Source: an uncultured Alphaproteobacteria bacterium (GTDB taxonomy: Bacteria; Pseudomonadota; Alphaproteobacteria; HIMB59; GCA-002718135). From it: 64,000 bases of DNA. Within the stretch, counting starts at the first letter, position 1. Each line of letters starts with the position of its first letter. Position numbers and translations under genes: made by a program. This document shows, one piece after another, positions 32,793-58,989 of this stretch. The DNA is taken from positions 762 through 64,761 of the forward strand of contig CACNAF010000004.1 in the NCBI GenBank assembly GCA_902618385.1. The letters are read 5' to 3'. The notes below the pieces were generated by a model. That model had not been told where the DNA came from. It was given only the letters and a program-made list of their open reading frames with translations, and made no database searches.

Positions 32793-34562
32793 ATGGCAAA
32801 AATGACTACAGAAGAGGCTTTCGTAAAAGTTTTACAAAAACACGGTATTCAACATGCTTTTGGAATAATTGGTTCGGCATTTATGCCGATATCAGATCTT
32901 TTTCCTAAAGCTGGAATAACATTTTGGGATGTTGCTCATGAGTCAAATGGTGGAATTATGGCTGATGGCTATACAAGATCTACAGGTAAAATTGCAATGT
33001 GTATTGCGCAAAATGGACCTGGTATAACTGGCTTGGTTACACCTATAAAAACTGCTTTTTGGAACCATACTCCAATGCTCTTAGTTACTCCTCAAGCAGC
33101 TAATAAAACTATTGGTCAAGGAGGATTCCAAGAAGTCGAGCAAATGAACTTATTTAAAGATATGGTGTGCTATCAAGAAGAAGTAAGAGATCCCTCCAGA
33201 GTTGCAGAGGTTTTAAATAGAGTAATTTCAAAAGCTATTAAAGGATCCGCTCCTGCTCAATTAAATATACCAAGAGATTTTTGGACCCAAGTTGTTGATA
33301 TTGATCTGCCACCTATAATTAAATTTGAAAGACCTGCTGGTGGAACAGAAGCAATTAAAGAAGCTGCTGATCTTTTATCTAATGCAAAATTCCCAGTCAT
33401 TTTGTCTGGTGCTGGAGTGATATTAGCTGATGCTATTGATGATTGCAAAAAACTTGCTGAAAAATTAAGCGCTCCTGTTGCTTGCGGATACCAACACAAT
33501 GATAGTTTTCCAGGCAAACATCCCCTTGCGGTTGGTCCTTTAGGATACAATGGATCTAAAGCAGCAATGGAAATAATATCTAAGGCAGATGTAGTTTTAG
33601 CACTTGGTACAAGATTAAATCCCTTCTCAACTTTACCAGGTTATGGAATAGATTATTGGCCAAAAAATGCGGCTGTTATTCAAGTTGATATCAATTCTGA
33701 TCGCATTGGTTTAACAAAAAAAATTAGCGTTGGTATTTGTGGAGATGCAAAACTAGTTGCAGAACAAATTTTAGAAAACCTTACAACAAATGCAGGTGAT
33801 CAAAATAGAAAAGAACGAGAGGATTTAATTCATAAAACAAAGTCAGCTTGGCTTCAAACATTAACTGGCCTTGATCATGAAGAAGATGATCCTGGTACAT
33901 CTTGGAATAAAGATTCACGAGATAGAGAACCAGAAAAAATGTCACCAAGAATGGCATGGCGAGCTATTCAAGCAGGTCTTCCTGAAGATGCAATTATATC
34001 AAGTGATATAGGAAATAATTGTGCAATAGGTAATGCATATCCAACATTTGAGAATGGTAGAAAGTATTTAGCACCTGGTTTATTTGGGCCATGTGGGTAT
34101 GGTTTTCCATCTGTAATTGGAGCAAAGATAGGTTGCCCTAATACACCAGTTGTTGGTTTTGCAGGTGACGGCGCATTTGGAATTAGTATGAGTGAAATGA
34201 CTTCTTGTAATAGAGAAGGTTGGCCAAATATTACAATGATAATTTTTAGAAATTATCAATGGGGAGCGGAGAAAAGAAATACTACACTTTGGTATAATAA
34301 TAATTTTGTTGGAACAGAACTTGATCCTAAATTAAGCTATGCAAAGATTGCAGAAGCATGTGGATTTAAAGGTGTTAAAGTTTACACTCAAGAGGAACTA
34401 ACAGAAGCTTTGCAACAATCTTGCAAGGATCAAATGGAAGGCATAACTACTTTTATAGAAGTTATGTTAAATCAAGAACTAGGAGAACCTTTTAGACGAG
34501 ATGCTATGAAGGCCCCAGTTGAAGTTGCTGGAATTGATCCAAAAGATACAGTAGTTCAATAA
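32793..34562 (+). CDS. xsc: Sulfoacetaldehyde acetyltransferase (ThDP-dependent)
   Basis: 589 aa. The N-terminus MAKMTTEEAFVKVLQKHGIQHAFGIIGSAFMPISDLFPKAGITFWD closely matches my memory of characterised Xsc proteins. ThDP motif GDGAFG...N. A pta and a taurine-type aminotransferase are also in the window. Confidence 0.8.
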   Translation: MAKMTTEEAFVKVLQKHGIQHAFGIIGSAFMPISDLFPKAGITFWDVAHESNGGIMADGYTRSTGKIAMCIAQNGPGITGLVTPIKTAFWNHTPMLLVTPQAANKTIGQGGFQEVEQMNLFKDMVCYQEEVRDPSRVAEVLNRVISKAIKGSAPAQLNIPRDFWTQVVDIDLPPIIKFERPAGGTEAIKEAADLLSNAKFPVILSGAGVILADAIDDCKKLAEKLSAPVACGYQHNDSFPGKHPLAVGPLGYNGSKAAMEIISKADVVLALGTRLNPFSTLPGYGIDYWPKNAAVIQVDINSDRIGLTKKISVGICGDAKLVAEQILENLTTNAGDQNRKEREDLIHKTKSAWLQTLTGLDHEEDDPGTSWNKDSRDREPEKMSPRMAWRAIQAGLPEDAIISSDIGNNCAIGNAYPTFENGRKYLAPGLFGPCGYGFPSVIGAKIGCPNTPVVGFAGDGAFGISMSEMTSCNREGWPNITMIIFRNYQWGAEKRNTTLWYNNNFVGTELDPKLSYAKIAEACGFKGVKVYTQEELTEALQQSCKDQMEGITTFIEVMLNQELGEPFRRDAMKAPVEVAGIDPKDTVVQ

Positions 34563-36241: not shown

Positions 36242-37153
36242 ATGGATATTTTATTTTCGATAATTGGATTAGGGCTTCTAGTTTTAGGTGCTGAAATAAT
36301 TATAAGAGGTTCAGTTAGTTTTGGAAGAAAGATTAATATCTCATTGTTTGCAATTGGTGTTGTAATTGTAGCTGGGGGAACATCATTACCTGAATTGGCG
36401 AGCAGCATTAATGCAGTTCTTAATGATTTTTCGGATCTTGCTTTAGGCGCTGTAGTTGGAAGTAATATTGCAAACTTGATACTTGTAATGGCCACGACGA
36501 CATTAATTTTTCCAATTGTAAATATAAATAAAAATCAAATTAACCAAGCTTGGATAAATATTATTTTAGGAATTGTATTAATTATTATGACTTTTTTTTA
36601 TTTTAATTTTATTTTTGGATTAATTGCAACTACTTCATTGATTTATCTAATGTATGTTCAAATAAAAAAAGGAGAAATTGATAATTTAGAAATAGATAAA
36701 AACGATTATTCAATAACAATCTCATTAATATTAATCATAATAGGTATAGCATGTTTGGTATTTGGTGCAGATTTACTTGTTGATTCAGCAATTAATATTG
36801 CAAGAACTTATAATGTTCCAGCTTCAGTAATTGGATTATCATTAGTAGCTTTTGGAACTTCTCTTCCAGAACTTGCAGTTGGTATTGTTTCTGCCTTTAG
36901 AAAAAAGATTGATTTCGCTTTAGGAAATATTCTGGGGTCTAATATTTATAATGTATTAGGTGTTCTAGGTATTAGTTCTTTTTTTGGTAATTTTAAAGTT
37001 CCTGCAGTTTTAGCAAATCAAGACTTATACTTCATGTTATCAATTACAGCATTAATTTTAATTTTTATGATTTTTGCAAAAAAAATTGGACGTATTTATG
37101 GAATTATTGGATTAACTTTGTATTTTGGATATATGTATTTCATTTACATATAA
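36242..37153 (+). CDS. Ca2+/cation antiporter family (CaCA, YrbG-type) membrane protein
   Basis: 303 aa. Two alpha-repeat motifs (GTSLPELASS...GSNIANL and GTSLPELAVG...GSNIYNV). Confidence 0.8.
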   Translation: MDILFSIIGLGLLVLGAEIIIRGSVSFGRKINISLFAIGVVIVAGGTSLPELASSINAVLNDFSDLALGAVVGSNIANLILVMATTTLIFPIVNINKNQINQAWINIILGIVLIIMTFFYFNFIFGLIATTSLIYLMYVQIKKGEIDNLEIDKNDYSITISLILIIIGIACLVFGADLLVDSAINIARTYNVPASVIGLSLVAFGTSLPELAVGIVSAFRKKIDFALGNILGSNIYNVLGVLGISSFFGNFKVPAVLANQDLYFMLSITALILIFMIFAKKIGRIYGIIGLTLYFGYMYFIYI

Positions 37154-37170
37154 TTTTAATTAATAAAAAA

Positions 37171-37187: not shown

Positions 37188-37979
37188 ATGAACTTAGAAT
37201 TACATAAATCAAAAAATTTATTAAAAATATTAAATACTGCTATAGATGCAGGTAAGGAAATTCAAAAAGTATATAAAAAATCTTTTAATGTAGAAATAAA
37301 AGATGATAATTCACCTATTACCGAAGCTGATATAAAATCAAATAATTTAATTTTAAATAGATTAAAATCTTTTAGCCCGAATGTTCCTATATTAAGCGAA
37401 GAAAGTCTAATAGAATGGAAAGAAAGAAAAACTTGGAATTCATATTGGTTAATAGATCCATTAGATGGAACTAAAGAATTTATAAAAAAAAATGGAGAAT
37501 TTACAGTTAACATTGCATTAATAAAAAATAATTCACCAATATTTGGTATTATATATGCGCCTGCTAAGTCTTTGCTTTATTATGCTTTAAAAAACAATGG
37601 CGCATATAAATTAATTACAGAGTCAAATATTGAAACAACTAAAGATTTTATAAAAATAAATTCAGTAAAAGACAAAAGTAATTTAACAAAGGTTATTGGT
37701 AGTCGATCACATTCTAATAAAGATTTTGATAATTGGATAAATGATAATTGTAATAATTTTGAGTTAATCCAAATTGGAAGTTCTCTCAAATTTTGTTACT
37801 TAGCTGAAAGTAAGGCAAATATCTATCCAAGACTAGGTCCAACTTCAGAATGGGATATTGCTGCGGGTCATATTATTCTTGAAGAGGCAGGAGGATCAAT
37901 TAAAGATTTTAATGAAAATATATTACTATACAACACTAAACAAAGTGTTATTAACCCTAATTTTATTGCTAAAATTTAA
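37188..37979 (+). CDS. cysQ: 3'(2'),5'-bisphosphate nucleotidase
   Basis: 263 aa. Inositol-monophosphatase-fold motifs ILSEES, WLIDPLDGTKEF and WDIAAGHIIL, with CysQ-like length and layout. Confidence 0.8.
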   Translation: MNLELHKSKNLLKILNTAIDAGKEIQKVYKKSFNVEIKDDNSPITEADIKSNNLILNRLKSFSPNVPILSEESLIEWKERKTWNSYWLIDPLDGTKEFIKKNGEFTVNIALIKNNSPIFGIIYAPAKSLLYYALKNNGAYKLITESNIETTKDFIKINSVKDKSNLTKVIGSRSHSNKDFDNWINDNCNNFELIQIGSSLKFCYLAESKANIYPRLGPTSEWDIAAGHIILEEAGGSIKDFNENILLYNTKQSVINPNFIAKI

Positions 37980-37990
37980 ATTATAAAGAT

Positions 37991-38404
37991 ATGAAAATAC
38001 TTATTTGTGGCCTTCCTGGTGCTGGTAAAACTTGGTTAGCTGAAAGGATTATTAAAGTAATTGATAATTGTGCTTGGTATAACGCAGATGTAGTAAGGAA
38101 GTCAGCAAACGATTGGGATTTTACGATGGAAGGTAGAATACGACAAGCCAATAGAATGAAAACATTTGCTGATTTTGAAAAACAAAATGGAAGATGGGTA
38201 ATTTGTGACTTTGTAGCACCAACTGAAAAAGCAAGAGAAGCTTTTGAGCCTGATTTTGTTATCTGGCTGGATACTATTAAAGAAGGTAGGTTTGAAGATA
38301 CAAATAAAATGTTTGAACAACCAAATAATACTGACATTAAAATAACCAAATTTTTATCAGATGAAGAAATAGAAAATCTAGCAAAGGAGATTAAAAATGT
38401 TTGA
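37991..38404 (+). CDS. Minimal P-loop kinase resembling the core of adenylyl-sulfate (APS) kinase
   Basis: 137 aa. Walker A GLPGAGKTWLA. The downstream pattern YNADVVRKS..DWDFT..GRIRQANRM......G.WVICDFVAPT..AR lines up by eye with the APS-kinase LDGDxVR...LGFS..DR.ENIRR....G.....FISP core. The C-terminal lid is missing. Confidence 0.5.
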   Translation: MKILICGLPGAGKTWLAERIIKVIDNCAWYNADVVRKSANDWDFTMEGRIRQANRMKTFADFEKQNGRWVICDFVAPTEKAREAFEPDFVIWLDTIKEGRFEDTNKMFEQPNNTDIKITKFLSDEEIENLAKEIKNV

Positions 38405-38792
38405 TTGGAAAAAACCAACAGTACAAATGTTAGGTAGATGGCAACCATGGCATGATGGACATACAGAATTATTTAAAAGGGCACTTCAGAAAACAGGTCA
38501 GGTATGTATTATGTATCGTGATGTGGGAGGTGTAGATGCAGGTGTAGAAGGTCAAGGTGACAATCCATTTCAATTTGAAGAAGTAAAAGCAAAAATTAAT
38601 GAAGGTTTAGCCCAACATGGTTTTACTGATGGAAAAGAATATGTAGTTGTTAAGGTTCCAAACATTATTGATATTTCTTATGGAAGAGGAGTTGGTTATT
38701 CATTTACAGAACATGATTTAGGAAAAGAAATACATGATATCTCGGCAACAAAAATTAGAAATGAAATGAGAGTTAAAGGGGAATTAAAATAA
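38397..38792 (+). CDS. Minimal HxGH-type nucleotidylyltransferase (cytidylyltransferase-like superfamily)
   Basis: 131 aa. GRWQPWHDGH (HxGH motif) and DISATKIRNEM (ISxTxIR motif). The ATG overlaps the kinase stop by 8 nt (ATGTTTGA). Confidence 0.6.
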   Translation: MFDWKKPTVQMLGRWQPWHDGHTELFKRALQKTGQVCIMYRDVGGVDAGVEGQGDNPFQFEEVKAKINEGLAQHGFTDGKEYVVVKVPNIIDISYGRGVGYSFTEHDLGKEIHDISATKIRNEMRVKGELK

Positions 38793-38793
38793 G

Positions 38794-40113
38794 CTAAATT
38801 TTTTCTCCTGCTGGTTTTCCATATCCAACATTTTTTTTCCCATATCGTCTTACTCTCACATTACATTGTTCTGCATGGCCAATAAAACCTTCTAAATGTG
38901 AAAGTCTAGATCCATATTCTCCGATGAGAGTTGCAGCTTCATCTGTCATAATCTTTTGATAAGTATGGGTTTTAATGAACTTACCAACCCACAAACCACC
39001 AGTATATCTTCCAGCTTTTTTAGTTGGAAGAGTATGGTTAGTGCCTATGACTTTATCACCATTAGCAACATTAGTTCTGGCGCCCAAAAATAGAGCTCCA
39101 TAAGATGTCATATTTTCTAAAAACCAATCATCTTTTTTTGTCATAACTTGTACGTGCTCTGAAGCTATTTCATTTGCTTTAGATAACATCTCCTCATAGG
39201 TATCACATAAAATTATTTCTCCATAATCTCTCCAGCTTGTACTTGCTGTTTCTTTAGTAGGTAAAATTTCTAAAATTCTATCAATTTCTTTAAATGTTTC
39301 TTCTGCAAGTTTTCTTGAGTTCGTTATCATCACAGCAGGAGAATTATATCCATGTTCAGCTTGTCCTAATAAGTCTGTTGCACATATTTCACCATCAACA
39401 GTTTCATCTGCAATTACCATTGTTTCAGTTGGACCAGCAAATAAATCGATACCAACTTTGCCATACAATTGTCTTTTCGCTTCAGCAACAAATGCATTGC
39501 CAGGTCCAACAAGCATATCTACAGGTCTAATAGTTTCTGTACCAATAGCCATAGCACCAACTCCTTGCATTCCTCCCAAAACATAAATTTCGTGAGCACC
39601 ACCCATTTTCATTGCAGTAACGACAGCTGGATTTGGCTTACCTTTAAAAGGTGGTGTAGTAGCAACAATTCTTGGAACCCCAGCAACAGAGGCAGTAACA
39701 ACTGACATATGAGCAGAAGCTACCATTGGGAATTTTCCGGCAGGTACATAGCAACCTACTGCTTGTACAGGTATATTCTTATGACCTAGAATAACACCTG
39801 GATGCGTTTCTACTTCTAATTCACTTAAAGTTTTAAGTTGTGCTTCTGCAAATGATCGCACTTGTTTTTGAGCAAATTTAATATCTTCTTTGTCTTCGTC
39901 AGAGACTTCACTCATTAATTGATTTATTTGATCTTCACTTAATCGAAAACTATCTGGTGAATAGTTATCAAATTTTTGTGATAATTCTCTAACATATTTA
40001 TCACCTTCTGATTCAATTTTACTTAATGTTTCCTCAACAATTTTTTTTACTTTATCATTATCTTCAATTCTTTGTTTTTCATCTAAACCTTTTTTTAAAT
40101 ATTCAATTGCCAT
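38794..40113 (-). CDS. Histidinol-dehydrogenase-family 4-electron alcohol dehydrogenase, non-his-operon paralogue (candidate sulfopropanediol 3-dehydrogenase HpsN)
   Basis: 439 aa. HisD catalytic and Zn motifs are retained ([27 protein letters not shown]). The context is catabolic, not histidine biosynthesis. The HpsN assignment is an inference. Confidence 0.8.
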
Positions 40114-40115
40114 AA

Positions 40116-41210
40116 TTATTTTTTATGAATTAATTTAAAGATATCAATGCCTATTTGATCTAATATGTGTGCTATGTCGATTGGTACCCAATTTTCTCTA
40201 ATTCGCCCTTCATGATGTAAATAAAAATCCATAACTCTTATTGTGACAGCTTTACCAGTACCTTGGTAGCCTAGCCACTCATTAGAACCATGTATACACT
40301 CAATACTTTGCCAGCCTGATGTCATTGAATAATTACCATCAGCTATTTCTATATAATGACCAATTTTCCAATAATCTCTCTCTTTAAATGTAAACCTAAA
40401 AGGTAATTGATGATGATCAACATATCCTTTTAAACCTCTTGCTGTACCAATACCGCAAGGTCCGTACCACATCATTTTAGGATGCCAGAATTCTTTTTGA
40501 GGATGATTTAGTAATTTATCTCTAACGTATTCATGCGTTGATCCAGGATCTGTTTCTGGTTTTATATTTAAACTTCTCTGCATTGTTAAAGCTTGATTCA
40601 TCGAATTGATGGACAACTTATCATCCATATTTTCAAATGTTGTACCATCACCGGTTATAGGACCAGGCCACATTCCTTCTACTCCTAATGATTTATTTAT
40701 TGGCCAAAATCCTGCCTGACGAATAAAATCTAGAGTATCAATCAAAATATGTGATTGAATGATTTTATTATCTTTAATTTGATGCGCTTCACATATTCTT
40801 AAATGTATAGTTTTGCCATGAGCAGGAACATTAAGCCATGGATTAACAAAAGTCCCAGTTAAATGAGCTATTGTTGAAACAAAAACTGAGTTTTGAAAAG
40901 AACCCCCAAGAATTAGGTTATCCCTTCTCTCAAGATCAGGAAATGCATTTAAAAGCGGTTTCCATAATTTTTCTGTTATTTCAGAAATGCCTTTTAAGTC
41001 ATTAAGTGGATGGAAGGTTCTTATTTCTGCATCATCATGATACGCATCACTAATATTTTTATTAATATTTTCTGAATTGGATTCAGCTATATTTTTTAAA
41101 AGAATTCTGATTTTTTTTTTATTTGCTATATTTATCTTTGGATTTAAATTAATTACTTCAGTGCTTCCTTCTTTTTTTATTCCAGTATTAAAATTTTCAA
41201 TTTCTGTCAT
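40116..41210 (-). CDS. Tandem (two-domain) SnoaL-like/ester-cyclase NTF2-fold protein, paralogue 1
   Basis: 364 aa. Domain 1: [15 protein letters not shown]...GTF...[24 protein letters not shown]. Domain 2: [16 protein letters not shown]...[20 protein letters not shown]. Both fit the ester-cyclase pattern FPD...G.H.G...TGk......f....gkI.E.W...D...ll.QiG. Confidence 0.6.
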
Positions 41211-41260
41211 AATTTACTTAGTTTCAGTTACTCACAGTTTAGGCTCAATATTTAATTGAT

Positions 41261-41299
41261 TTATTCAATATTTTGAATAATATTCATTAAAAATGCATA
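41261..41299. promoter_or_regulatory. Cluster of overlapping palindromes in the divergent promoter region (candidate operator)
   Basis: TTATTCAA-TATT-TTGAATAA (41261-41280), TGAATA-A-TATTCA (41274-41286), then TATTCATTAAAAATGCATA (41281-41299). The last motif recurs upstream of the LacI/SBP genes. Confidence 0.3.
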
Positions 41300-41318
41300 A
41301 AATATAATTTTTCTTAAT

Positions 41319-42290
41319 ATGTCAATAAATATAGAAAGTCGTCTTGCGAGATTTAATGATTTAATACCAAGTAAGGTTCCTTTTGTTGAGGGTAAATTAA
41401 AAGGACATCAAGATAGATTGAATTACTCATTAGTGGGTCCTGGCGTAAGTGAAGATTCTAAACAAAATGTAAAAATTGCTGAGGAGCATGGGTTTAATAT
41501 TGGGGCAGTAAGTGCTGCACCGATGAATGGTTCTGGGCTTCATAGTCATACAACAGCTGAGGTGTTTATTATCTTTTCTGGTTCATGGCGTTTTTATTGG
41601 GGACCAGATGGAAAAGAGGGTGAGGTTATTTTACATAAAGGAGATGTCGCTTCATTTCCTACTAATATGTTTAGAGGATTTCAAAATGTTAGTGATCAAC
41701 AAGCATTAATGTTTGTAGTTTTAGGTGAAAATGATCCTGGAGTAATTACATGGACTCCTTCATTGTTAAAAAAAGCAAAAGAAACTGGAATGGTTCTTTT
41801 AAATGATAACTCTCTTATTGATTTAGAAAAAAATCAAATACCTGATGGTAAAAAAGCAATAGAGCCAATCACAGATAATGAATTAACACAATTTGATCAT
41901 TACACTTCTGAAGAAATTGAAAAATTTGTAATTCGTTATGCAGATCAAAAAAATTATTTTCTAGATGACGAACATTATAATTCAAATTCTATTTTAAATT
42001 ATCTAGATGATTTCACTATTCATAATAAAGAATTTAAACCATATATTAGTCATAAAACTGGATTTGGACTTACTCTTCTTGAAGGTAATAATGCTCATAT
42101 ACATTCTTACACCTCATCAAAATCTGAAGTTTATTTATGTTTGGCGGGAGAATGGGAAATTACATGTAATGATAAAAAGGTGTTAATTGGCCCTAGAGAT
42201 GCCTTCTCCCCTCCAAAAAACTCTACAAGAAGCCTTAAAAATATAAGTAGCGATAAAGGTAGCATTTATATAGTGCGCCAAAAAAATTAA
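41319..42290 (+). CDS. Bicupin (two cupin barrels) protein of unknown function
   Basis: 323 aa. The N-terminal barrel has a full metal motif, GSGLHSHTTAEVFIIFSG (G..H.H...E......G). The C-terminal barrel has AHIHSYTSSKSEVYLCLAGEW. Confidence 0.65.
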   Translation: MSINIESRLARFNDLIPSKVPFVEGKLKGHQDRLNYSLVGPGVSEDSKQNVKIAEEHGFNIGAVSAAPMNGSGLHSHTTAEVFIIFSGSWRFYWGPDGKEGEVILHKGDVASFPTNMFRGFQNVSDQQALMFVVLGENDPGVITWTPSLLKKAKETGMVLLNDNSLIDLEKNQIPDGKKAIEPITDNELTQFDHYTSEEIEKFVIRYADQKNYFLDDEHYNSNSILNYLDDFTIHNKEFKPYISHKTGFGLTLLEGNNAHIHSYTSSKSEVYLCLAGEWEITCNDKKVLIGPRDAFSPPKNSTRSLKNISSDKGSIYIVRQKN

Positions 42291-42293
42291 AAG

Positions 42294-43265
42294 ATGAAGG
42301 GTTTTGATAAAAAATTTAGAGATCTACCCGATTATATACTAAAAATTACACATCAAATTTGGGAAGACAAGGATGTTGAGTCAATAAGAGAATATTATGC
42401 AAAAGGAATTCCAGTTAGGTCCCCTGCTGGAGTTGTGTATGGACCTGATGCAGTTGTGAAAGCAACTTATGCAACTTTAGAAGAATTTCCTGACCGTCAA
42501 CTTTTAGGTGAAGATGTCATATGGATAGGTAATGAACATGATGGGTATTTATCTTCGCACCGAATTTTAACTAGAGCAACCCACTTAAATGATGGTGTTT
42601 ATGGAAAAGCAACAGGAAAAAAACTTATTTATAGAGTAATTGCAGATTGTGCATGCAAGGATAATCAAGTGTATGATGAATGGCTTGTTAGAGATCAGGG
42701 CGCAATCGTAAGACAACTTAATTTAGATCCAAAAAAATATGCAAAACAAATAATTGATAATCAAGGGGGTGTTGAAAATTGCGCAGTTCCTTTTAACAAA
42801 AATACGCCTTTGGATTTAAAATATTCACAATTAAATTTACCGGAAAAAAATTCAGGTTATGAATATGCAGAAGTCCTAAAATCTATATTTAATAAAGATA
42901 TTAATATAGTTGATAAAAAATATGATAGAGCAATAAATCAAGAATTACCAGGCGGATTGAAAGCTTACGGAGTAGAAGAAGTAAAAACTTTTTGGACTTC
43001 TCTATTGTCATCATTTCCTGATGCAACATTTTCAATTGATCATGTTAGCTATTTAGAAGAACCAAATCAGTACAGAAAGGCAGCTATTAGATGGTCACTT
43101 AATGGTGTTCATTCGGGTTCGGGATATTTTGGAGTACCTAGTCAAGCAGCAGTTCATGTCATGGCTATATCACATGTTGAATTTGGACCACGAGGTATTA
43201 AAAATGAATGGATTTTGTTTGATGAAACTGAAATTTGGAAACAAATTTTGATGAAAACAGGATAG
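42294..43265 (+). CDS. Tandem SnoaL-like/ester-cyclase NTF2-fold protein, paralogue 2 (more divergent)
   Basis: 323 aa. EEFPDRQLLGEDVIWIG...ATHLNDGVYGKATGKKLIYRVIADCACKDNQVYDEWLVRD, then a second SFPDATFSIDHVSYL...GVHSG...VHVMAISHVEFGPRGIKNEWILFDE. Confidence 0.55.
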   Translation: MKGFDKKFRDLPDYILKITHQIWEDKDVESIREYYAKGIPVRSPAGVVYGPDAVVKATYATLEEFPDRQLLGEDVIWIGNEHDGYLSSHRILTRATHLNDGVYGKATGKKLIYRVIADCACKDNQVYDEWLVRDQGAIVRQLNLDPKKYAKQIIDNQGGVENCAVPFNKNTPLDLKYSQLNLPEKNSGYEYAEVLKSIFNKDINIVDKKYDRAINQELPGGLKAYGVEEVKTFWTSLLSSFPDATFSIDHVSYLEEPNQYRKAAIRWSLNGVHSGSGYFGVPSQAAVHVMAISHVEFGPRGIKNEWILFDETEIWKQILMKTG

Positions 43266-43272
43266 CTAAAGA

Positions 43273-44403
43273 TTGAACACGAAAATTTTAACAACACATG
43301 TAGGAAGTTTACCTCGTTCTAAAGCTTTATCAGAATTACTTTTTGCAAAAGATAAGGGAGATAGTTTTAGTGAAAATGAATTTGATGATGTTGTAAAACA
43401 AAATGTAAGTGACATTGTCAAAAAACAACTTGATACAGGTATTGATTTTGTCAGTGATGGTGAAATGAGTAAAATCAGTTATGCTACATATGTTAAAGAT
43501 AGAATTAATGGTTTTTCCGGTGAAAGTGAAAGAAGAGCGCCAGCTGACTTAGATGCATTTCCTGAATATAAAGATAAAATTGCTAAAAGTGGGGGAACAC
43601 CTACTTATACCCGACCCTGTTGTACTGGAGAACTCTCTATTAAAAATAATTATGATCTTTTAAAAGATATAAATAATCTATCTTCTGCATTAAATGCTAA
43701 TAATCATACTAAGGGCTTTATGAATGCTGCTTCACCAGGAGTCATAAATGTTTTTTTACCAAATAAATTTTACAAAAATGATGACGAGTACCTAAGTAAG
43801 CTTAGCGTGATTATGGCAGAAGAATATCAACAAATTACTTATAATAATTTATTCTTGCAAGTTGATTGTCCAGATTTAGCCCTAGCAAGGCATATGAATT
43901 TTAAAGAATTAGATGAAAAAAGTTTTTTGCTGCGAGCAGAAAAACAAATTGAAGCTCTTAATCTTTCACTGGCATCAGTTCCACAAGACAAAATTAGAAT
44001 GCATATCTGCTGGGGAAATTATGAAGGACCTCATACCTTTGATATTGGTTTGGAAAAAATTTTACCAATAGTACTTAAGGCAAAAAGTAAATATTTATTA
44101 ATTGAGTCTTCTAATCCAAGACATGCTCATGAATGGAAAGTTTTTGAAAAGATCAAATTGCCACAAGATAAAGTTATTGTGCCAGGTGTTATTGATTCTA
44201 CTTCAAATTTTGTTGAACACCCGGAAGTTGTTGCTGATCGGTTAAAACAATTTTCTACTTTTGTACCAAAGGAGCAAATTATGGCTGGTACAGATTGTGG
44301 TTTTAGTACTTTTGCTGGATTTGGAAAAGTTGATGAAAAAATTTGTTATGAGAAATTAATTTCGTTAGTTAAGGGCACTCAAATAGCATCTAAAACGATT
44401 TGA
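43273..44403 (+). CDS. Cobalamin-independent methionine synthase catalytic-domain-only (core-MetE / MetE-II family) protein, copy 1
   Basis: 376 aa, TTG start in the track. THVGSLPR N-terminus, and Zn-ligand pattern H-x-C (RMHICWGNYEG), IESSNPRH, DCG (AGTDCGFS). Confidence 0.7.
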   Translation: MNTKILTTHVGSLPRSKALSELLFAKDKGDSFSENEFDDVVKQNVSDIVKKQLDTGIDFVSDGEMSKISYATYVKDRINGFSGESERRAPADLDAFPEYKDKIAKSGGTPTYTRPCCTGELSIKNNYDLLKDINNLSSALNANNHTKGFMNAASPGVINVFLPNKFYKNDDEYLSKLSVIMAEEYQQITYNNLFLQVDCPDLALARHMNFKELDEKSFLLRAEKQIEALNLSLASVPQDKIRMHICWGNYEGPHTFDIGLEKILPIVLKAKSKYLLIESSNPRHAHEWKVFEKIKLPQDKVIVPGVIDSTSNFVEHPEVVADRLKQFSTFVPKEQIMAGTDCGFSTFAGFGKVDEKICYEKLISLVKGTQIASKTI

Positions 44404-52926: not shown

Positions 52927-53826
52927 TTAGTTATTTGCAGCAACTACAGCTGCCATAATTGACGCAAGTTTAGAATTTTTACTATCTGCTCTGCTAGGGA
53001 CTACAACTGGTACTTTACCACCAATTACTATTCCTGCCGCACAAGCATTCATAAAATAAACCATTATTTTGGACAAAGAATTTCCAGTTTCTAAATTAGG
53101 TACTAATAATACATCAGCATCACCAGCAACATCATTATTTATTCCTTTTATTTTAGCTGCTTCCTTAGAAACAGCATTATCAAAAGCAAGCGGTCCATGA
53201 ACAAAAGCATTAATTTTTTCTTCTAACGCAAGTTCCATAACTTTTTTGGCATCTACTGAACTTGGCATACTGTCAATTGGATCTTCTGTACCTGATAAAA
53301 TTGCAACTTTTGGTTTAGTAATATTTAATTTATTACAAAATTGAACAGCATTTTTAAGAATTTGTAATTTTATATCAACTCTTGGTAAAACATTTAAGGC
53401 GCCATCAGTAATAAAAAGGGGTTTTTTAAGCTGTGGCGTAGTCATATGCCAAATATGACTTAATCTTCTACCATCAAGTAAATTAAATTCTTTTTTTAAA
53501 TAAGAGCGCATTAAAATATCAGTATGAAGATTCCCTTTAATTATGATTTTACTTTTATTTTCATTAGAAATTTGACAAGCAATTGATGCACTATCCTCTT
53601 CATCTTTAGCCTCTACAATATTAAAATTAGAAATATCCAAACTTAATTTTTTCGCTGTTTCAGTAATTAAACTTTTATTTCCAATTAAAGTTGGATCGAT
53701 GAGGTTCATATTCTTACCTTCAATTACAGCTGATAATATGCTTTCTTGATTGGGGCACACAACTGCTGCTGGTATGTTAGGAGTCTCTAAAGCTTTACTT
53801 TTAAGATCTTCTGGTAATGTGCTCAT
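52927..53826 (-). CDS. pta: Phosphate acetyl/butyryl-transferase (short PTA_PTB form)
   Basis: 299 aa. PTA_PTB family features (IIKGNLHTD, FITDGALN, GDADVLLVPNLETGN, PVVVPSRADS). Its partner enzyme Xsc is in the window. Confidence 0.75.
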   Translation of the reverse strand: MSTLPEDLKSKALETPNIPAAVVCPNQESILSAVIEGKNMNLIDPTLIGNKSLITETAKKLSLDISNFNIVEAKDEEDSASIACQISNENKSKIIIKGNLHTDILMRSYLKKEFNLLDGRRLSHIWHMTTPQLKKPLFITDGALNVLPRVDIKLQILKNAVQFCNKLNITKPKVAILSGTEDPIDSMPSSVDAKKVMELALEEKINAFVHGPLAFDNAVSKEAAKIKGINNDVAGDADVLLVPNLETGNSLSKIMVYFMNACAAGIVIGGKVPVVVPSRADSKNSKLASIMAAVVAANN

Positions 53827-53944: not shown

Positions 53945-55285
53945 ATGGACTTAGAAAAAAGAACAGAAATACCTAATTCATTAGAAGAACATTGGATGCC
54001 ATTTACATCTAATAGAGATTATAAAAATAGTCCAAGATTAATGGTTAAGGCAGAAGGTGTTTATTATACTGATCATTATGGAAATAAATTAATTGATGCT
54101 AGCTCAGGGCTATTTTGTAGTCCAGCGGGTCATTCAAGACCAGAAATAAGAGAAGCAGTATCAAAACAATTAGAGCAATTAGATTATGTTCAACCATTTC
54201 AACAAGGTTTTGGTGGTTCATTTGATTTAGCTAGAAAAGTTTCAAAACATACACCCGAAGATTTAAATAAAATATTTTTTACTATTTGTGGTTCGTCAGC
54301 TGTTGAAACAGCAATTAAAACAGCCATAGCATATTTTAAAGCAAAAGGAGAAGGTCATAGATCTCACATAGTAGGAAGAGAAAGAGGTTATCATGGAATG
54401 AATATTGGAGGAATTTCTGTTGGTGGAATGATTGCTAATAGAAAAACTTTCTCAAATATTCTCATGCCAAATGTACATCATCTAAGACATACTCATTTAC
54501 CTGAAAATTTATTTGTAAAAGGCGAACCTGAAACAGGTGCTGATCTAGCAGATGATCTTGAAAGAATTGCTGGTAACATAGGTGCTGAAAATATTGCAGC
54601 ATGTATTGTAGAGCCAGTTGCAGGATCAACAGGAACTTTAGTTCCACCAAAAGGATATTTAAAAAGATTAAGAGAAATTTGTGACAAACACGGAATTCTT
54701 TTAATTTTTGATGAAGTTATTACTGGTTGGGGAAGAATGGGTGCTCCATTTGCAGCTCAAGCTTTTGATGTTTGTCCAGATATCATGACAATGGCTAAAG
54801 CAATTACTAATGGCGTTGTACCTTTAGGGGCAGTAGCTTCACGTGATCATATCTATGATACTATTGTTGATGCATCACCTACAGGAGCTATAGAATTTTT
54901 TCATGGTTATACTTATTCTGCTATACCAGTTTCAATGGCAGCAGGTTTAGCAATGCAAGATATAATCGAGAAAGAAGATTTATTTAATAGAGCAAAGGAT
55001 ATGTCTCCATATTTCTTAGATGGTTTATTTTCGTTGAAAGACTTAGATATCATTACTGATATAAGAGGATATGGAATGATGGGAGGAATTGACATTAAAA
55101 TGGATGAGCGTTTAGGCAAAGCTGGATATGCTTGTTTTAAAAAATTATTTGAAGCAGGCTTAAGCTTGAAAGCAACAGGTGATTGTTTAATTGTTGCACC
55201 TCCATTTACTTGTGAAAAAAAACATATTGATGAGATAATTGAAAAATTAAGAACAGGTATCTCAAACTATATGCATGACAGATAA
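53945..55285 (+). CDS. Class-III omega-amino acid/taurine:pyruvate aminotransferase
   Basis: 446 aa. HWMPFTSNR..., GYHG, LIFDEVITGWGRMG, and MAKAITNG (PLP Lys). Close by eye to beta-alanine/taurine--pyruvate transaminases, and coupled to ald. Confidence 0.85.
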   Translation: MDLEKRTEIPNSLEEHWMPFTSNRDYKNSPRLMVKAEGVYYTDHYGNKLIDASSGLFCSPAGHSRPEIREAVSKQLEQLDYVQPFQQGFGGSFDLARKVSKHTPEDLNKIFFTICGSSAVETAIKTAIAYFKAKGEGHRSHIVGRERGYHGMNIGGISVGGMIANRKTFSNILMPNVHHLRHTHLPENLFVKGEPETGADLADDLERIAGNIGAENIAACIVEPVAGSTGTLVPPKGYLKRLREICDKHGILLIFDEVITGWGRMGAPFAAQAFDVCPDIMTMAKAITNGVVPLGAVASRDHIYDTIVDASPTGAIEFFHGYTYSAIPVSMAAGLAMQDIIEKEDLFNRAKDMSPYFLDGLFSLKDLDIITDIRGYGMMGGIDIKMDERLGKAGYACFKKLFEAGLSLKATGDCLIVAPPFTCEKKHIDEIIEKLRTGISNYMHDR

Positions 55286-56400
55286 TGAAAATAGGTGTTC
55301 CCTCTGAGATTAAAGCTCAGGAGTCCAGAGTTGGGCTTACCCCACAAAGTGTTAAAGAATTAGTAAAAGATAAACATACCGTTCTAATCCAAAAGGATGC
55401 GGGTATTGGAGCTGGCTTTTCAAATAGTGATTATGAATTGTCAGGTGCTAAAATTGTAAATTCCGCTGAAGATGTTTTCAATGATTCTGAAATGATCGTA
55501 AAAGTAAAAGAACCTCTAATGAATGAAGTAGCAATGATAAGAGAAAACCAAATTTTATTTACTTATTTACATCTTTCAGCAGCTCCAGAATTGACAAAGG
55601 GTTTAATTGATTCAAATTCTATTTGTATAGCTTATGAAACGGTAAGTGATCATAATAATAAATTACCTCTGCTAGCACCAATGAGTGCTGTAGCAGGTAG
55701 AATGTCGATACAAGCAGGAGCTTATTCTCTTGAAAAACATAAGGGTGGAAGTGGTTTACTTTTAGGTGGCGCACCTGGAGTTCAGCCTGGAAATGTATTA
55801 ATTTTAGGTGGAGGTGTTGTTGGAGAAAATGCAGCAATAATTGCTACAGGTATGCAAGCAAAAGTTTTCATCGTTGATAAATCAGAAAAAAGATTAGAAG
55901 AATTACAAGAAAAATTTGGTGATAAAATAGAACCACTACATAGTGATAAAATAAATCTAAAAGATTATATTTCTGAATGTGATTTACTAATTGGCGGAGT
56001 ACTTGTTCCAGGCTCTAATGCTCCAAAGATTATAACTAAGGACATGATAAAAGAGATGAAAAGTGGATCTGTAATTGTTGATGTTGCAATTGATCAAGGT
56101 GGTTGTGTTGAAACTAGTAAACCAACAACTCATGCAAACCCTACATATGTTGTTGATGATGTTGTTCATTATTGTGTTGCAAATATGCCAGGGGGAGTTC
56201 CTAGAACTTCCACTCTTGCTTTAAATGCAGTCACTTTGCCATTTATTCAAAACTTAGCTTCTAATGGTTTTAAAGATGCTTTAAAAAATGATAAAAATTT
56301 TATGAATGGTTTAAATATTTTTAAAGGTGCCGTTACATATAAGGCTATTGCTGATGATTTAAATTATGATTATGCTAATCCAGAAACTTTAGTACACTAA
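55285..56400 (+). CDS. ald: Alanine dehydrogenase
   Basis: 371 aa. MKIGVPSEIKAQESRVGLTP, NAD motif ILGGGVVGENAA, and VHYCVANMPG. The start overlaps the aminotransferase stop (TAATG). Confidence 0.95.
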   Translation: MKIGVPSEIKAQESRVGLTPQSVKELVKDKHTVLIQKDAGIGAGFSNSDYELSGAKIVNSAEDVFNDSEMIVKVKEPLMNEVAMIRENQILFTYLHLSAAPELTKGLIDSNSICIAYETVSDHNNKLPLLAPMSAVAGRMSIQAGAYSLEKHKGGSGLLLGGAPGVQPGNVLILGGGVVGENAAIIATGMQAKVFIVDKSEKRLEELQEKFGDKIEPLHSDKINLKDYISECDLLIGGVLVPGSNAPKIITKDMIKEMKSGSVIVDVAIDQGGCVETSKPTTHANPTYVVDDVVHYCVANMPGGVPRTSTLALNAVTLPFIQNLASNGFKDALKNDKNFMNGLNIFKGAVTYKAIADDLNYDYANPETLVH

Positions 56401-57453: not shown

Positions 57454-58989
57454 TTATTCCATTTTTCTGCTAAATGGTCCAGATTTTGTATTAACACCTG
57501 AACTGGAAAGTTTAGTGTTTGATAATTGTCGCTCCTGATGAATCATGCGGTGACTTAACAATTTTGATACTAGTTCATGTTTTATATCTTTAAATTCTCT
57601 TAAGTCTGATAGATCATTTATTTCCTCAGGATCTTTTTCTAAATCAAATAATAAACATGGCAATGAAGGAAAATGAACATATTTCCATTTATTATTTCTA
57701 ATGACCGATAGATTACATTGTTCGGGTGCTAATTTTTTATCTTTAACAAATGAAGTACTTTCTCTAAAATCATAATCAAAAACAACATATTCTTTATTAG
57801 GTGATTTTTCGTATTTATGATTGATATTGTGCATCAGTGATTGACCATTCCAATCAATGGGGATGTCACCACCAAGCCATTCTAAAATTGTAGGAGCAAC
57901 ATCTACAGATTCTGTTAAATGGTTAATTTCTTTTGGATTGTTTTGAGGCAGATAAATAAATAATGGAATTCTATAAGAAGAGTCCCACCAACCTAATTTC
58001 CCCCATAAATTATTTTCATTTAACATCTCTCCATGATCACTAGTAAAAATTATCATTGTATTTTCTTCTTGCCCTGATTCTTTAAGAGCATTCAAAATTT
58101 TACCAATATTAAAATCAACTTCTGCGCACATAGCAAAATAGACACTCATAATATTTTTGATATCTTGATCTTTTAAAAGATCATAATTAATTTCAGAGAA
58201 ATTTTCTTTTAGTAAAAATTTTTTACATAACTCTTCAAGTAGTGGATGTTTTTTTGATAATTCTTTCAGTGAAATATCATTTTTAGATAAGTTAATACTA
58301 TCTGGATTAAATTTACTAAACCATGGATCAGCTACATGAAAGGGTGGGTGTGGTTTTAAAAAAGATACATGCATAAAAAATGAATCTTTAACCTTTTTTA
58401 AGTCGTTAACAACTTTGTCTGCTAAAAATGCGGTGTCTGAAAATTCAGTTGGAATATAATATGGCTCATAAATATACGCTTGATCATCTTTAGGCTTTCT
58501 TCCTTTGTACAAATCTTCTGCTTTATTAATTTCAAAACCATTTTGATTAAGATGGTTAGCCCAAGGCTCAGGTTTTCCCCCTGGTAAAACACAACCATCA
58601 TCAAATCCTTCCATTGGTGATTCATAGGTAAAATTTTTTTTATCTTTTGGATCCAAGTATCTTGGATCCCAAGAAGTATCAGTGTATCCGTAAAGTCTTG
58701 GATTATAATTTAGTTTACGAACTTCTTTAGCGATATTTGTAAATCTTTTATCAAGAGGAGCGCCATTATATACTGAACGATGTATAAATGGATATAAACC
58801 TGTAAGCATAGTAGTTCTAGATGGACCACAAGGGACAATTCCAGCAAAATGTGATTTAAAAACTACACTTTTTTTTGCAAGTTTGTCTAAGTTTGGTGTT
58901 AGAGCATATGGATGATTTAGGAAGCTAAAGCAGTCAAAACGCCATTGATCAGCACATATAAAAAGAACAGATTTTTTGGATTTTTCCAT
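57454..58989 (-). CDS. Formylglycine-type sulfatase-family hydrolase, phosphonate-monoester-hydrolase (PMH)-like subgroup
   Basis: 511 aa, no signal peptide. CADQWRFD, active-site C-x-P-x-R (VPCGPSRTTMLTGLYP), FTSDHGE, PTILEWLGG, KYVHF and LFDLEKDPEE, which match my memory of rhizobial PMH. Confidence 0.8.
   Translation of the reverse strand: MEKSKKSVLFICADQWRFDCFSFLNHPYALTPNLDKLAKKSVVFKSHFAGIVPCGPSRTTMLTGLYPFIHRSVYNGAPLDKRFTNIAKEVRKLNYNPRLYGYTDTSWDPRYLDPKDKKNFTYESPMEGFDDGCVLPGGKPEPWANHLNQNGFEINKAEDLYKGRKPKDDQAYIYEPYYIPTEFSDTAFLADKVVNDLKKVKDSFFMHVSFLKPHPPFHVADPWFSKFNPDSINLSKNDISLKELSKKHPLLEELCKKFLLKENFSEINYDLLKDQDIKNIMSVYFAMCAEVDFNIGKILNALKESGQEENTMIIFTSDHGEMLNENNLWGKLGWWDSSYRIPLFIYLPQNNPKEINHLTESVDVAPTILEWLGGDIPIDWNGQSLMHNINHKYEKSPNKEYVVFDYDFRESTSFVKDKKLAPEQCNLSVIRNNKWKYVHFPSLPCLLFDLEKDPEEINDLSDLREFKDIKHELVSKLLSHRMIHQERQLSNTKLSSSGVNTKSGPFSRKME

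Follow-up and report, generated by a model that had tools for sequence, protein, structure and literature searches.

A cysQ operon encoding a lid-less APS-kinase homologue and a minimal nucleotidyltransferase: a candidate PAPS-forming unit in SAR11 bacteria

We analysed a stretch of 64,000 nucleotides (the window) from an uncultured alphaproteobacterium (assembly GCA_902618385.1, contig CACNAF010000004.1, positions 762 to 64,761), an AT-rich sequence of about 30% GC that is syntenic with contigs of Pelagibacteraceae. The subject is a run of three genes at 37188-38792, namely cysQ, a gene for a small kinase related to adenosine 5'-phosphosulfate (APS) kinases and a gene for a small nucleotidyltransferase (NTase), considered here as a possible route to the sulfate donor 3'-phosphoadenosine 5'-phosphosulfate (PAPS) and to the removal of its by-product 3'-phosphoadenosine 5'-phosphate (PAP). 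The open reading frames (ORFs) lie exactly where a first-pass annotation, made from the sequence alone, had placed them, and the spacings it gave between them are also correct. The features of the operon region are the following.

37126..37154, + strand: promoter-like site TGGATA-17-TATAAT, 10/12 match, just 5' of cysQ; weak, a candidate only
37188..37979, + strand: cysQ, 3'(2'),5'-bisphosphate nucleotidase (PAP/PAPS 3'-phosphatase), 263 amino acids (TIGR01331, Pfam Inositol_P)
37991..38404, + strand: lid-less APS-kinase homologue, 137 amino acids (Walker A GLPGAGKT, Pfam APS_kinase)
38384..38389, + strand: AAGGAG ribosome-binding site of the NTase gene, within the 3' end of the kinase gene, read from the sequence
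38397..38792, + strand: minimal HIGH-motif nucleotidyltransferase, 131 amino acids, candidate sulfate adenylyltransferase (GRWQPWHDGH, R41, NPF, YGRGVGY, ISATKIR)

The cysQ product passed the TIGR01331 bisphos_cysQ equivalog model with 288.8 bits against a cut-off of 228.8 and matched Pfam Inositol_P at E = 5.6e-52; judged by these models, it is a bona fide member of the TIGR01331 family, as the first reading had named it. The expected role of CysQ is to clear the PAP left by sulfotransferases, and also by phosphopantetheinyl transferases. The cysQ stop codon ends at 37979 and the kinase ATG stands at 37991, leaving a gap of 11 nt, while the kinase stop codon (TGA, 38402-38404) lies beyond the NTase ATG (38397), giving an overlap of 8 nt. 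This overlap, together with the internal AAGGAG at a distance of 7 nt from the NTase ATG, predicts that the kinase and the NTase are translationally coupled. The promoter-like site upstream of cysQ is a mere candidate because the region holds no more such sites than shuffled sequence does (25 seen, 19.8 +/- 5.8 expected), and the promoter/terminator scan of the region returned no terminator on the operon strand. An exact-sequence look-up of the window kinase found no record. Database searches returned 5633 homologues for the kinase and at least 8000 for the NTase, the latter with 82-96% identity among its 120 best matches, and both ORFs are therefore taken to be real genes and not chance reading frames.

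The kinase matched Pfam APS_kinase (PF01583) with 30.5 bits against a gathering score of 21.1, the alignment covering residues 3-84 only. Its AlphaFold2 model, built on a 55-sequence alignment, reached a pLDDT of 95.6, and a Foldseek search of the PDB with this model gave a top 50 composed mostly of APS kinases, including 4fxp, 2ofw and 1m7g, at query-normalised TM scores of 0.76-0.85. A profile of the kinase family likewise matched APS kinases in the PDB at E values of 1e-12 to 1e-6, with NRK1 reaching only about 3e-3 in a match confined to the P-loop. In an hhalign comparison with a canonical CysC domain (97.6% probability), D33-x-x-R36 fell on DGDNxR, F44 on GFS, R49..Q52 on ENxRR, F74-V-A-P77 on FISP and R100-F101..F108-E-x-P111 on (E/Q)RD…FTGI..YDTP, where R100 matches the R of EKRD and F101 the F of FTGI. 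Columns D33, R36, F44, R49, Q52, F74, V75 and P77 are invariant in the family and R100 is nearly so. Compared with the canonical substrate-site motifs, D33, R36, F44, R49, F74, P77 and F101 are kept, and the changes are the first D to N, N to V, the Asn of ENIRR to Q52, and S to A. One 16-residue gap in the same alignment deletes DPKGLYKKARAGIIKD, which is the lid, so that the mobile lid of canonical CysC (RDPKGLYKKAR) has no counterpart in the window kinase. Because the Pfam, Foldseek, profile and hhalign results and the invariant motif positions agree, the kinase is a true APS-kinase homologue with an apparently largely intact nucleotide-acceptor site and a missing lid, which bears out an alignment originally made by eye. 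Most of its SAR11 relatives (P0047, P0062 and similar proteins; loci L002-L014), found in other SAR11 subclades, are 162-165 amino acids long and carry an unrelated insertion of about 27 residues, e.g., VVSSKLKELKNIKDLPFDAQTLAQSKK. The insertion sits at the exact point of the lid deletion and may be a lid that has re-evolved independently.

The NTase fell under the cut-off of each curated model tried, scoring 22.3 bits against 181.2 for TIGR01527, 29.2 against 127 for PRK01153 and 12.2 against 341.15 for the NMN adenylyltransferase (NMNAT) model of NadR (TIGR01526). Motifs of the NMNAT type are present in its translation, namely GRWQPWHDGH, NPF (56-58) and ISATKIR, of which WHDGH and ISATKIR had already been reported. 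Searched against the PDB, a profile of the NTase family (alignment A6) found its nearest solved relatives among archaeal/NadM NMNATs (1f9a at 8.6e-11, 2qjo, 2qjt and 4yp7). Apart from a weak match of the GY..(S)(A/G)TxIR end, the match is limited to NTase residues ~5-78 and NMNAT residues ~3-81; on 1f9a it covers residues 3-75 and, weakly, 110-134 of 168. Parts of NMNAT without a counterpart in the NTase are ~25 residues after strand 4 and ~34 at the C-terminus, ~60 in total. The AlphaFold2 model of the NTase (pLDDT 88) has only three main strands, and Foldseek aligned it only weakly (~85 columns, TM < 0.5) with PPAT, NMNAT, GCT and pantothenate synthetase.

Invariant residues of the NTase family are G13, R14, Q16, P17, H19, G21, H22, L25, R41, N56, P57, I67, G96, R97, V99, G100, Y101, L108, A117 and R121, with T118 and I120 nearly invariant. 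At the aligned positions of Methanocaldococcus jannaschii NMNAT there is no arginine for R41 or R97, and neither R41 nor the G-R-(D/G)-V-G-Y loop has a counterpart in the aligned NMNAT. The comparison thus indicates a protein that has kept the ATP-side catalytic machinery, has lost most of the acceptor-side structure and has gained two new invariant arginines. An acceptor of very small size would be consistent with the loss of the acceptor-binding half, and an anionic one with the added arginines.

The kinase and the NTase form one conserved functional unit. PHROG 10255, a family of 230 positions labelled only 'kinase', aligns with the kinase over its positions 2-123 (E = 1.2e-30) and with the NTase over 124-229 (E = 6.7e-24). 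Fused kinase-NTase proteins span 245-290 amino acids, and those of 245 amino acids occur in Xylella phages Sano, Salvo and Bacata, Stenotrophomonas phages Suzuki and DLP6, and Xanthomonas phages. A bacterial scan with one genome per species yielded 466 confirmed candidates and 80 loci, almost all from Alphaproteobacteria (Pelagibacteraceae, Bradyrhizobium, Xanthobacteraceae, Hyphomicrobiaceae, Reyranella, Inquilinus, Acetobacteraceae and Sphingomicrobium among them); in about 70 of the 80 the two genes are fused, and the split arrangement was seen in SAR11. The fused unit was found on at least 588 viral contigs, and the NTase family comprises 1047 representative clusters at 50% identity. Several odd NTase fusions (P0392, P0421, P0472 and P0502) were set aside as probable assembly or frameshift chimeras, their C-terminal parts resembling, by eye, unrelated housekeeping enzymes or sequence. 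An anti-phage defence function was considered and dropped, since the PADLOC matches were only weak (best 29.6 bits, E = 2.2e-7) and lay mostly at the P-loop end of the kinase.

In one further protein the NTase is joined to a canonical CysC. P0504 (311 amino acids) has the NTase at residues 6-118 followed by an APS kinase that scores 233.6 bits against the TIGR00455 cut-off of 138.7 and contains LDGDNLR, ENIRR, FISP and KGLYKKAR. At least 8 contigs, obtained from different marine samples, carry P0504 or its sister P0542. Because this CysC bears a lid, the NTase evidently works with an APS kinase whether or not the lid is present. The fusion genes (loci L183-L186) stand beside a divergent MFS/PTR2 transporter gene, and downstream of them is a gene whose product resembles a lipoprotein, is 635 amino acids long and contains extended (TDTS)n repeats as well as recurring modules of ~100 amino acids. 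This protein was rejected as a sulfotransferase; it is a repeat protein rich in S, T and D and may be a modified surface protein.

The genomic neighbourhoods were analysed by calling ORFs in all loci, clustering them and scanning the neighbours against Pfam. At non-SAR11 bacterial loci, 186 ORFs (sets of 110 and 76) were no more than two positions away from the fused gene; the Pfam family met most often among them was Sulfotransfer_3, one of the PAPS-dependent sulfotransferase families, with 6/110 and 5/76 (11/186), and its usual member was a TPR-sulfotransferase of ~660 amino acids. A local hidden Markov model (HMM) placed sulfotransferases in eleven non-SAR11 loci (L039, L040, L046, L047, L058, L061, L067, L074, L076, L081 and L089), which belong to Bradyrhizobium (five), Sphingomicrobium, Reyranella, Rhodospirillales, Rhodospirillaceae, Inquilinus and an unclassified alphaproteobacterium, and also in SAR11 locus L032, where the gene is fused. 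A sulfotransferase gene directly adjoins the fused gene in 8 bacterial loci, and arylsulfotransferase genes lie beside it in L046, L058 and L067. In SAR11 the fused copies occur within glycan islands, among genes for epimerase, DegT aminotransferase, GT2, SIS and ABC-exporter proteins. Sulfotransferases were found at 13 of the 80 viral loci: in L142, L143, L148, L149, L151 and L153 the gene immediately preceding the fused one encodes a 273-amino-acid sulfotransferase, which three more loci have nearby; in L132 and L134 the immediately preceding gene encodes a 566-amino-acid sulfotransferase-domain protein, which in L107 is separated from the fused gene by a small ORF. Sulfotransferases are the sole neighbour family enriched in both bacteria and viruses. 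They make up, by our estimate, a fraction of a percent of the genes in such genomes, and against this estimated background chance would fall far short of explaining why they recur beside the unit in several unrelated lineages of bacteria and in at least three architectures of viral loci, also when related loci are allowed for.

The link to cysQ is suggestive but local. Four other SAR11 contigs show the order cysQ-kinase-NTase, and in one of them, L014, the flanks differ. In other SAR11 lineages the pair, without cysQ, follows TauE, Rieske, GcvT-like or creatinase-like genes and precedes an enoyl-CoA hydratase gene. The functional argument rests on the sulfotransferase and CysC evidence. In a lineage with a 162-amino-acid kinase (L002, 7029-7937, and L003-L007), the pair is preceded, at a distance of 63 nt on the same strand, by a gene of the TauE/SafE family (sulfite/sulfonate exporters), with formate dehydrogenase and molybdenum-cofactor genes alongside. 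A general linkage to TauE was rejected, since a local HMM test confined the adjacency to this one lineage.

On balance, the three genes probably constitute a small operon that makes the sulfate donor PAPS and clears its by-product. The NTase would use its HxGH and ISxTxxR motifs to convert ATP and sulfate to APS and pyrophosphate, acting as a minimal sulfate adenylyltransferase derived from an NMNAT, and the lid-less kinase would then add a phosphate to the 3'-OH of APS, yielding PAPS. The consumers of PAPS would be sulfotransferases whose genes lie elsewhere in the SAR11 genome, within the hypervariable glycan islands, and the PAP that they release would be hydrolysed by CysQ to AMP and phosphate. 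That the NTase makes APS, the substrate of the kinase, is suggested by the constant coupling of an intact HIGH nucleotidyltransferase to an APS or APS-like kinase and by the repeated linkage to sulfotransferases; sulfate as its acceptor is deduced from the sulfotransferase neighbourhoods and the CysC fusions, and we likewise infer APS as the kinase substrate, the direction of flux in SAR11 and the sulfated acceptor molecules. SAR11 genomes contain aprBA, cysQ and a 'cysC' but no cysDN, sat or cysH-IJ (PMC5069961), and their hypervariable glycan islands typically carry sulfotransferases (bioRxiv 10.64898/2026.04.03.716430; PMC2217521). With sulfotransferases present and neither cysDN nor sat, a source of PAPS in SAR11 is otherwise missing.

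Several observations weigh against this interpretation. Most bacterial and viral loci have no sulfotransferase in the flanks examined, and many of those that do are related (five are from Bradyrhizobium), so that there are fewer independent events than loci. The window itself, as the first reading also found, yielded no sulfotransferase with two local HMMs and a six-frame scan for the 5'-phosphosulfate-binding (5'-PSB) motif, a search that covers families like Sulfotransfer_1/3. Adjacency to cysQ was seen in one SAR11 subclade only, and the local CysQ HMM found none at non-SAR11 or viral loci. The window kinase reached 21.7 bits with the TIGR00455 CysC equivalog, far under the cut-off of 138.7, and its lack of a lid and the changes of N to Q and DGDN to NADV mean that its substrate might not be APS. 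The closest relatives of the NTase are NMNATs, and IMG names some members NMN/NaMN adenylyltransferase. Against the ATP-sulfurylase family of Pfam (PF01747) the NTase scored 11.8 bits, below the gathering score of 24.3, with only the HxxH stretch (residues 16-34) aligned; a similarly weak match was given by 7 of 27 family members. ATP sulfurylase was also absent from the PDB matches of the NTase profile at E <= 10 and from the Foldseek top 50 of the NTase model. Membership of the ATP-sulfurylase family was consequently rejected, as the Pfam scans (single sequences and the 27 members) and the PDB profile search matched the generic HxxH only. The NTase has no N-terminal PUA-like domain and neither QxRNPxHxxH nor GRDHAG, the canonical ATP-sulfurylase motifs; there is only a loose resemblance in G-R-(D/G)-V-G-Y. 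The miniature APS/PAPS cycle proposed at the outset is thus partly supported: it is favoured by the APS-kinase homology with its APS-contacting positions, by the sulfotransferase linkage and by the CysC fusion, but not by membership of the NTase in the ATP-sulfurylase family or by a general association with cysQ.

Four other explanations were weighed, and the first of them involves a further set of genes in the window.

32793-34562, + strand: Xsc, sulfoacetaldehyde acetyltransferase (TIGR03457 956 bits, NF005713 1027 bits), 2.6 kb upstream of cysQ
52927-53826, - strand: Pta-like phosphotransacylase
53945-55285, + strand: omega-aminotransferase (AptA model 587 bits)
55285-56400, + strand: alanine dehydrogenase

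By their model matches, these genes appear to form a taurine/sulfonate catabolic set that releases sulfite. The unit could accordingly serve in sulfite disposal: AprBA would make APS from sulfite, e.g., that freed from sulfonates by Xsc, the NTase would be the missing 'Sat' that converts APS and pyrophosphate to ATP and sulfate, and the kinase and CysQ would buffer APS and PAPS or feed a minor pool of sulfite-derived PAPS. The presence of aprBA in SAR11 without sat or cysDN is consistent with this, as are the identical presence/absence patterns of 'cysC' and aprA in 7 genomes (Table 3, PMC5069961), the listing of AprA->AprB as a conserved 'sulfite oxidation' pair (bioRxiv 10.64898/2026.04.03.716430), the sulfonate-catabolism genes of the window, Xsc among them, and the TauE/SafE-family gene directly upstream of the pair in another SAR11-like lineage. 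But the co-occurrence in 7 genomes follows phylogeny and is weak, no aprBA was seen beside the pair in ~180 loci (FAD_binding_2 is not among the top neighbour families), and sulfite disposal explains neither the constant attachment of the kinase nor the position of the fused gene beside sulfotransferases in phages and soil Alphaproteobacteria. We consider it unlikely as the function of the unit.

It is also rather improbable that the product is a different 3'-phospho-adenylyl compound, in which case the NTase would adenylylate some other small anion, the kinase would add the 3'-phosphate, and a transferase would free PAP for CysQ. The logic is that of PPAT and dephospho-CoA kinase in CoA synthesis, and a CoaD/CoaE-like function, which was considered in its own right, is retained only within this explanation. 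The NTase belongs to no sulfurylase family and its best Foldseek folds (PPAT, NMNAT and GCT) are equally weak; the kinase is changed at sulfate-proximal positions (N to Q, DGDN to NADV) and lacks the lid; and many phage loci set the fused gene among PurA-like, IMPDH-like, S-adenosylmethionine (SAM) synthetase and CTP_transf_like genes, not sulfotransferases. Against these points stand the joining of NTase and fully canonical CysC in one protein, which indicates APS as the shared intermediate, the enrichment of sulfotransferases, alone among neighbour families, near the unit in both bacteria and viruses, and the deletion of most of the acceptor-binding part of the NTase fold, which fits a very small acceptor.

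There is a small chance that only the kinase is catalytic, as an APS kinase, with the NTase being a structural or regulatory partner, e.g., a substitute for the lid or an allosteric binder of ATP, APS or PAPS. In fungal ATP sulfurylase an APS-kinase-like domain has a regulatory function, the deletion of the kinase lid coincides with obligate association with the NTase, and many hosts of the fused gene (Bradyrhizobium and relatives) presumably own a CysDN that supplies APS. However, the HIGH catalytic signatures are invariant (H19, G21, H22 and R121, with T118 and I120 nearly so), which would be unexpected in a non-catalytic protein, and there is no other sulfurylase in SAR11. Since the CysC partner in P0504 still has its lid, lid replacement cannot be the general role of the NTase.

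The split NadR/NadM-like pair that the first-pass annotation had offered as its second reading, with the kinase acting on nicotinamide riboside and the NTase on NMN, is very improbable: the NadM/archaeal NMNATs (1f9a at 8.6e-11; 2qjo, 2qjt, 4yp7) are the best characterised relatives of the NTase, which carries GRxQPxHxGH and NPF and is called NMN/NaMN adenylyltransferase in some IMG entries, but the similarity is limited to NMNAT residues ~3-81, the ~25 and ~34 absent residues include the nicotinamide-contacting helix, the scores fail widely (22 against 181 for TIGR01527, 12 against 341 for the NadR NMNAT model), the kinase matches APS kinases and NRK1 only in the P-loop (E ~3e-3), no pnuC, nadV, Nudix or other NAD genes occur in the 25 commonest neighbour families, and the fusion partner of the NTase in P0504 is CysC.

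Returning to a PAPS-forming unit, its nearest analogues are the bifunctional PAPS synthases (PAPSS1/2; Sat-CysC, as in Aquifex 2gks; CysN-CysC), which also join an APS-kinase-type domain to an ATP-using adenylyltransferase and are linked functionally to sulfotransferases and PAP phosphatase. In metazoan PAPSS the kinase is N-terminal and the transferase C-terminal, the same as the usual order in the fused unit. Unlike these enzymes, the unit has a lid-less kinase, a transferase of ~115-130 amino acids that is NMNAT-like and lacks the PUA-like domain, QxRN, GRDHAG and Pfam ATP-sulfurylase membership, and a total length of ~250 rather than ~550-620 amino acids. The window kinase shares with CysC the fold, Walker A and the D..R / F / R..(N/Q) / F(I/V)(S/A)P / F..(F/Y)ExP positions and differs from it in the 16-residue lid deletion, the changes of DGDN to NADV and ENIRR to RQANRM, and obligate pairing or fusion with the NTase. 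The NTase resembles archaeal/NadM NMNAT (1f9a, 1ej2, 2qjo, 2qjt) in its N-terminal ~75 residues and in GRxQPxHxGH, NPF and (I/Y)S(A/G)TxIR, but is ~60 residues shorter, has the invariant R41 and G-R-(D/G)-V-G-Y, and is found with sulfotransferases and CysC, not NAD genes. NadR, too, pairs a HIGH nucleotidyltransferase with a P-loop kinase; the unit has the opposite domain order, no helix-turn-helix domain and a kinase from another P-loop subfamily. Coupling of CysQ to sulfation is represented by the E. coli and M. tuberculosis CysQ proteins, from which the window cysQ differs in being co-operonic with activation genes.

There is a fair chance that the NTase (115-130 amino acids, NMNAT-derived) represents a third, unrecognised class of sulfate adenylyltransferase beside Sat/MET3 and CysDN, and that with its kinase it is the smallest known PAPS synthase, at ~250 amino acids. 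SAR11 is the most abundant bacterial lineage of the ocean and a textbook non-assimilator of sulfate. If the assignment is right, SAR11 would activate seawater sulfate to sulfate its surface glycans, thereby using unreduced sulfate for surface chemistry (phage-receptor glycans), and a compact PAPS synthase would fill a gap in genomes that have sulfotransferases and CysQ but no recognised PAPS source. The unit would also be a candidate for the missing step from APS to sulfate and ATP after AprBA. The module would also be present in hundreds of phages, in many cases alongside a sulfotransferase of their own, and would serve to sulfate a host or viral target during infection. In structural terms, a nucleotidyltransferase would have been reduced to half a Rossmann fold and an APS kinase would work lid-free. 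At present phage members of the family go by 'kinase' or 'adenylylsulfate kinase' and the NTase is entered as 'hypothetical' or, probably wrongly, as 'NMN adenylyltransferase', so that the family is mis-scored by annotation pipelines and in tallies of viral sulfur auxiliary metabolic genes. The kinase has been tabulated before as the SAR11 'cysC' (PMC5069961), and a literature search of incomplete coverage found no paper that treats the two proteins as one unit or describes an NMNAT-like sulfurylase; the recognition of the pair as a unit and the proposal of a PAPS synthase assembled from unusual parts are thus probably new here.

Further gene contexts were observed around the viral copies of the fused gene. 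In L015-L017 and L101-L105 it directly follows an adenylosuccinate-synthetase-like gene of ~340 amino acids (PurZ-sized), near genes for IMPDH/GMP-reductase-like, B12-binding radical SAM and UvdE proteins, and this context could be a module for diaminopurine or another nucleotide modification. In L119, L121, L123, L124, L145 and L146, a ResIII/DEAD helicase gene lies upstream of the fused gene and the gene for the SAM synthetase MetK comes one or two genes after it; at other viral loci a separate CTP_transf_like gene of 146 amino acids accompanies the fused gene. In L017-L019, which are viral or large-virus-like, a small DUF2061 gene adjoins the fused gene and is followed by a QueC-like gene (a faint match) and by carbamoyltransferase and glycosyltransferase genes.

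Further genes of the window were noted downstream of the operon.

38794-40113, - strand: hisD-like
40116-41210, - strand: SnoaL-like
41319-42290, + strand: cupin-like
42294-43265, + strand: SnoaL-like
43273-44403, + strand: Meth_synt_2-like
57454-58989, - strand: sulfatase-family protein; best model PehA phosphoric/sulfuric ester hydrolase, 410.8 bits, below the cut-off of 900

The labels of the cupin, the second SnoaL and the MetE-like gene are based on synteny only. The sulfatase-family gene is a further sulfur-ester-related gene in the window, and the hisD-like/SnoaL/cupin/MetE-C-terminal-like cluster (38794-44403) is also found beside the operon in SAR11 contigs L008, L011 and L012.

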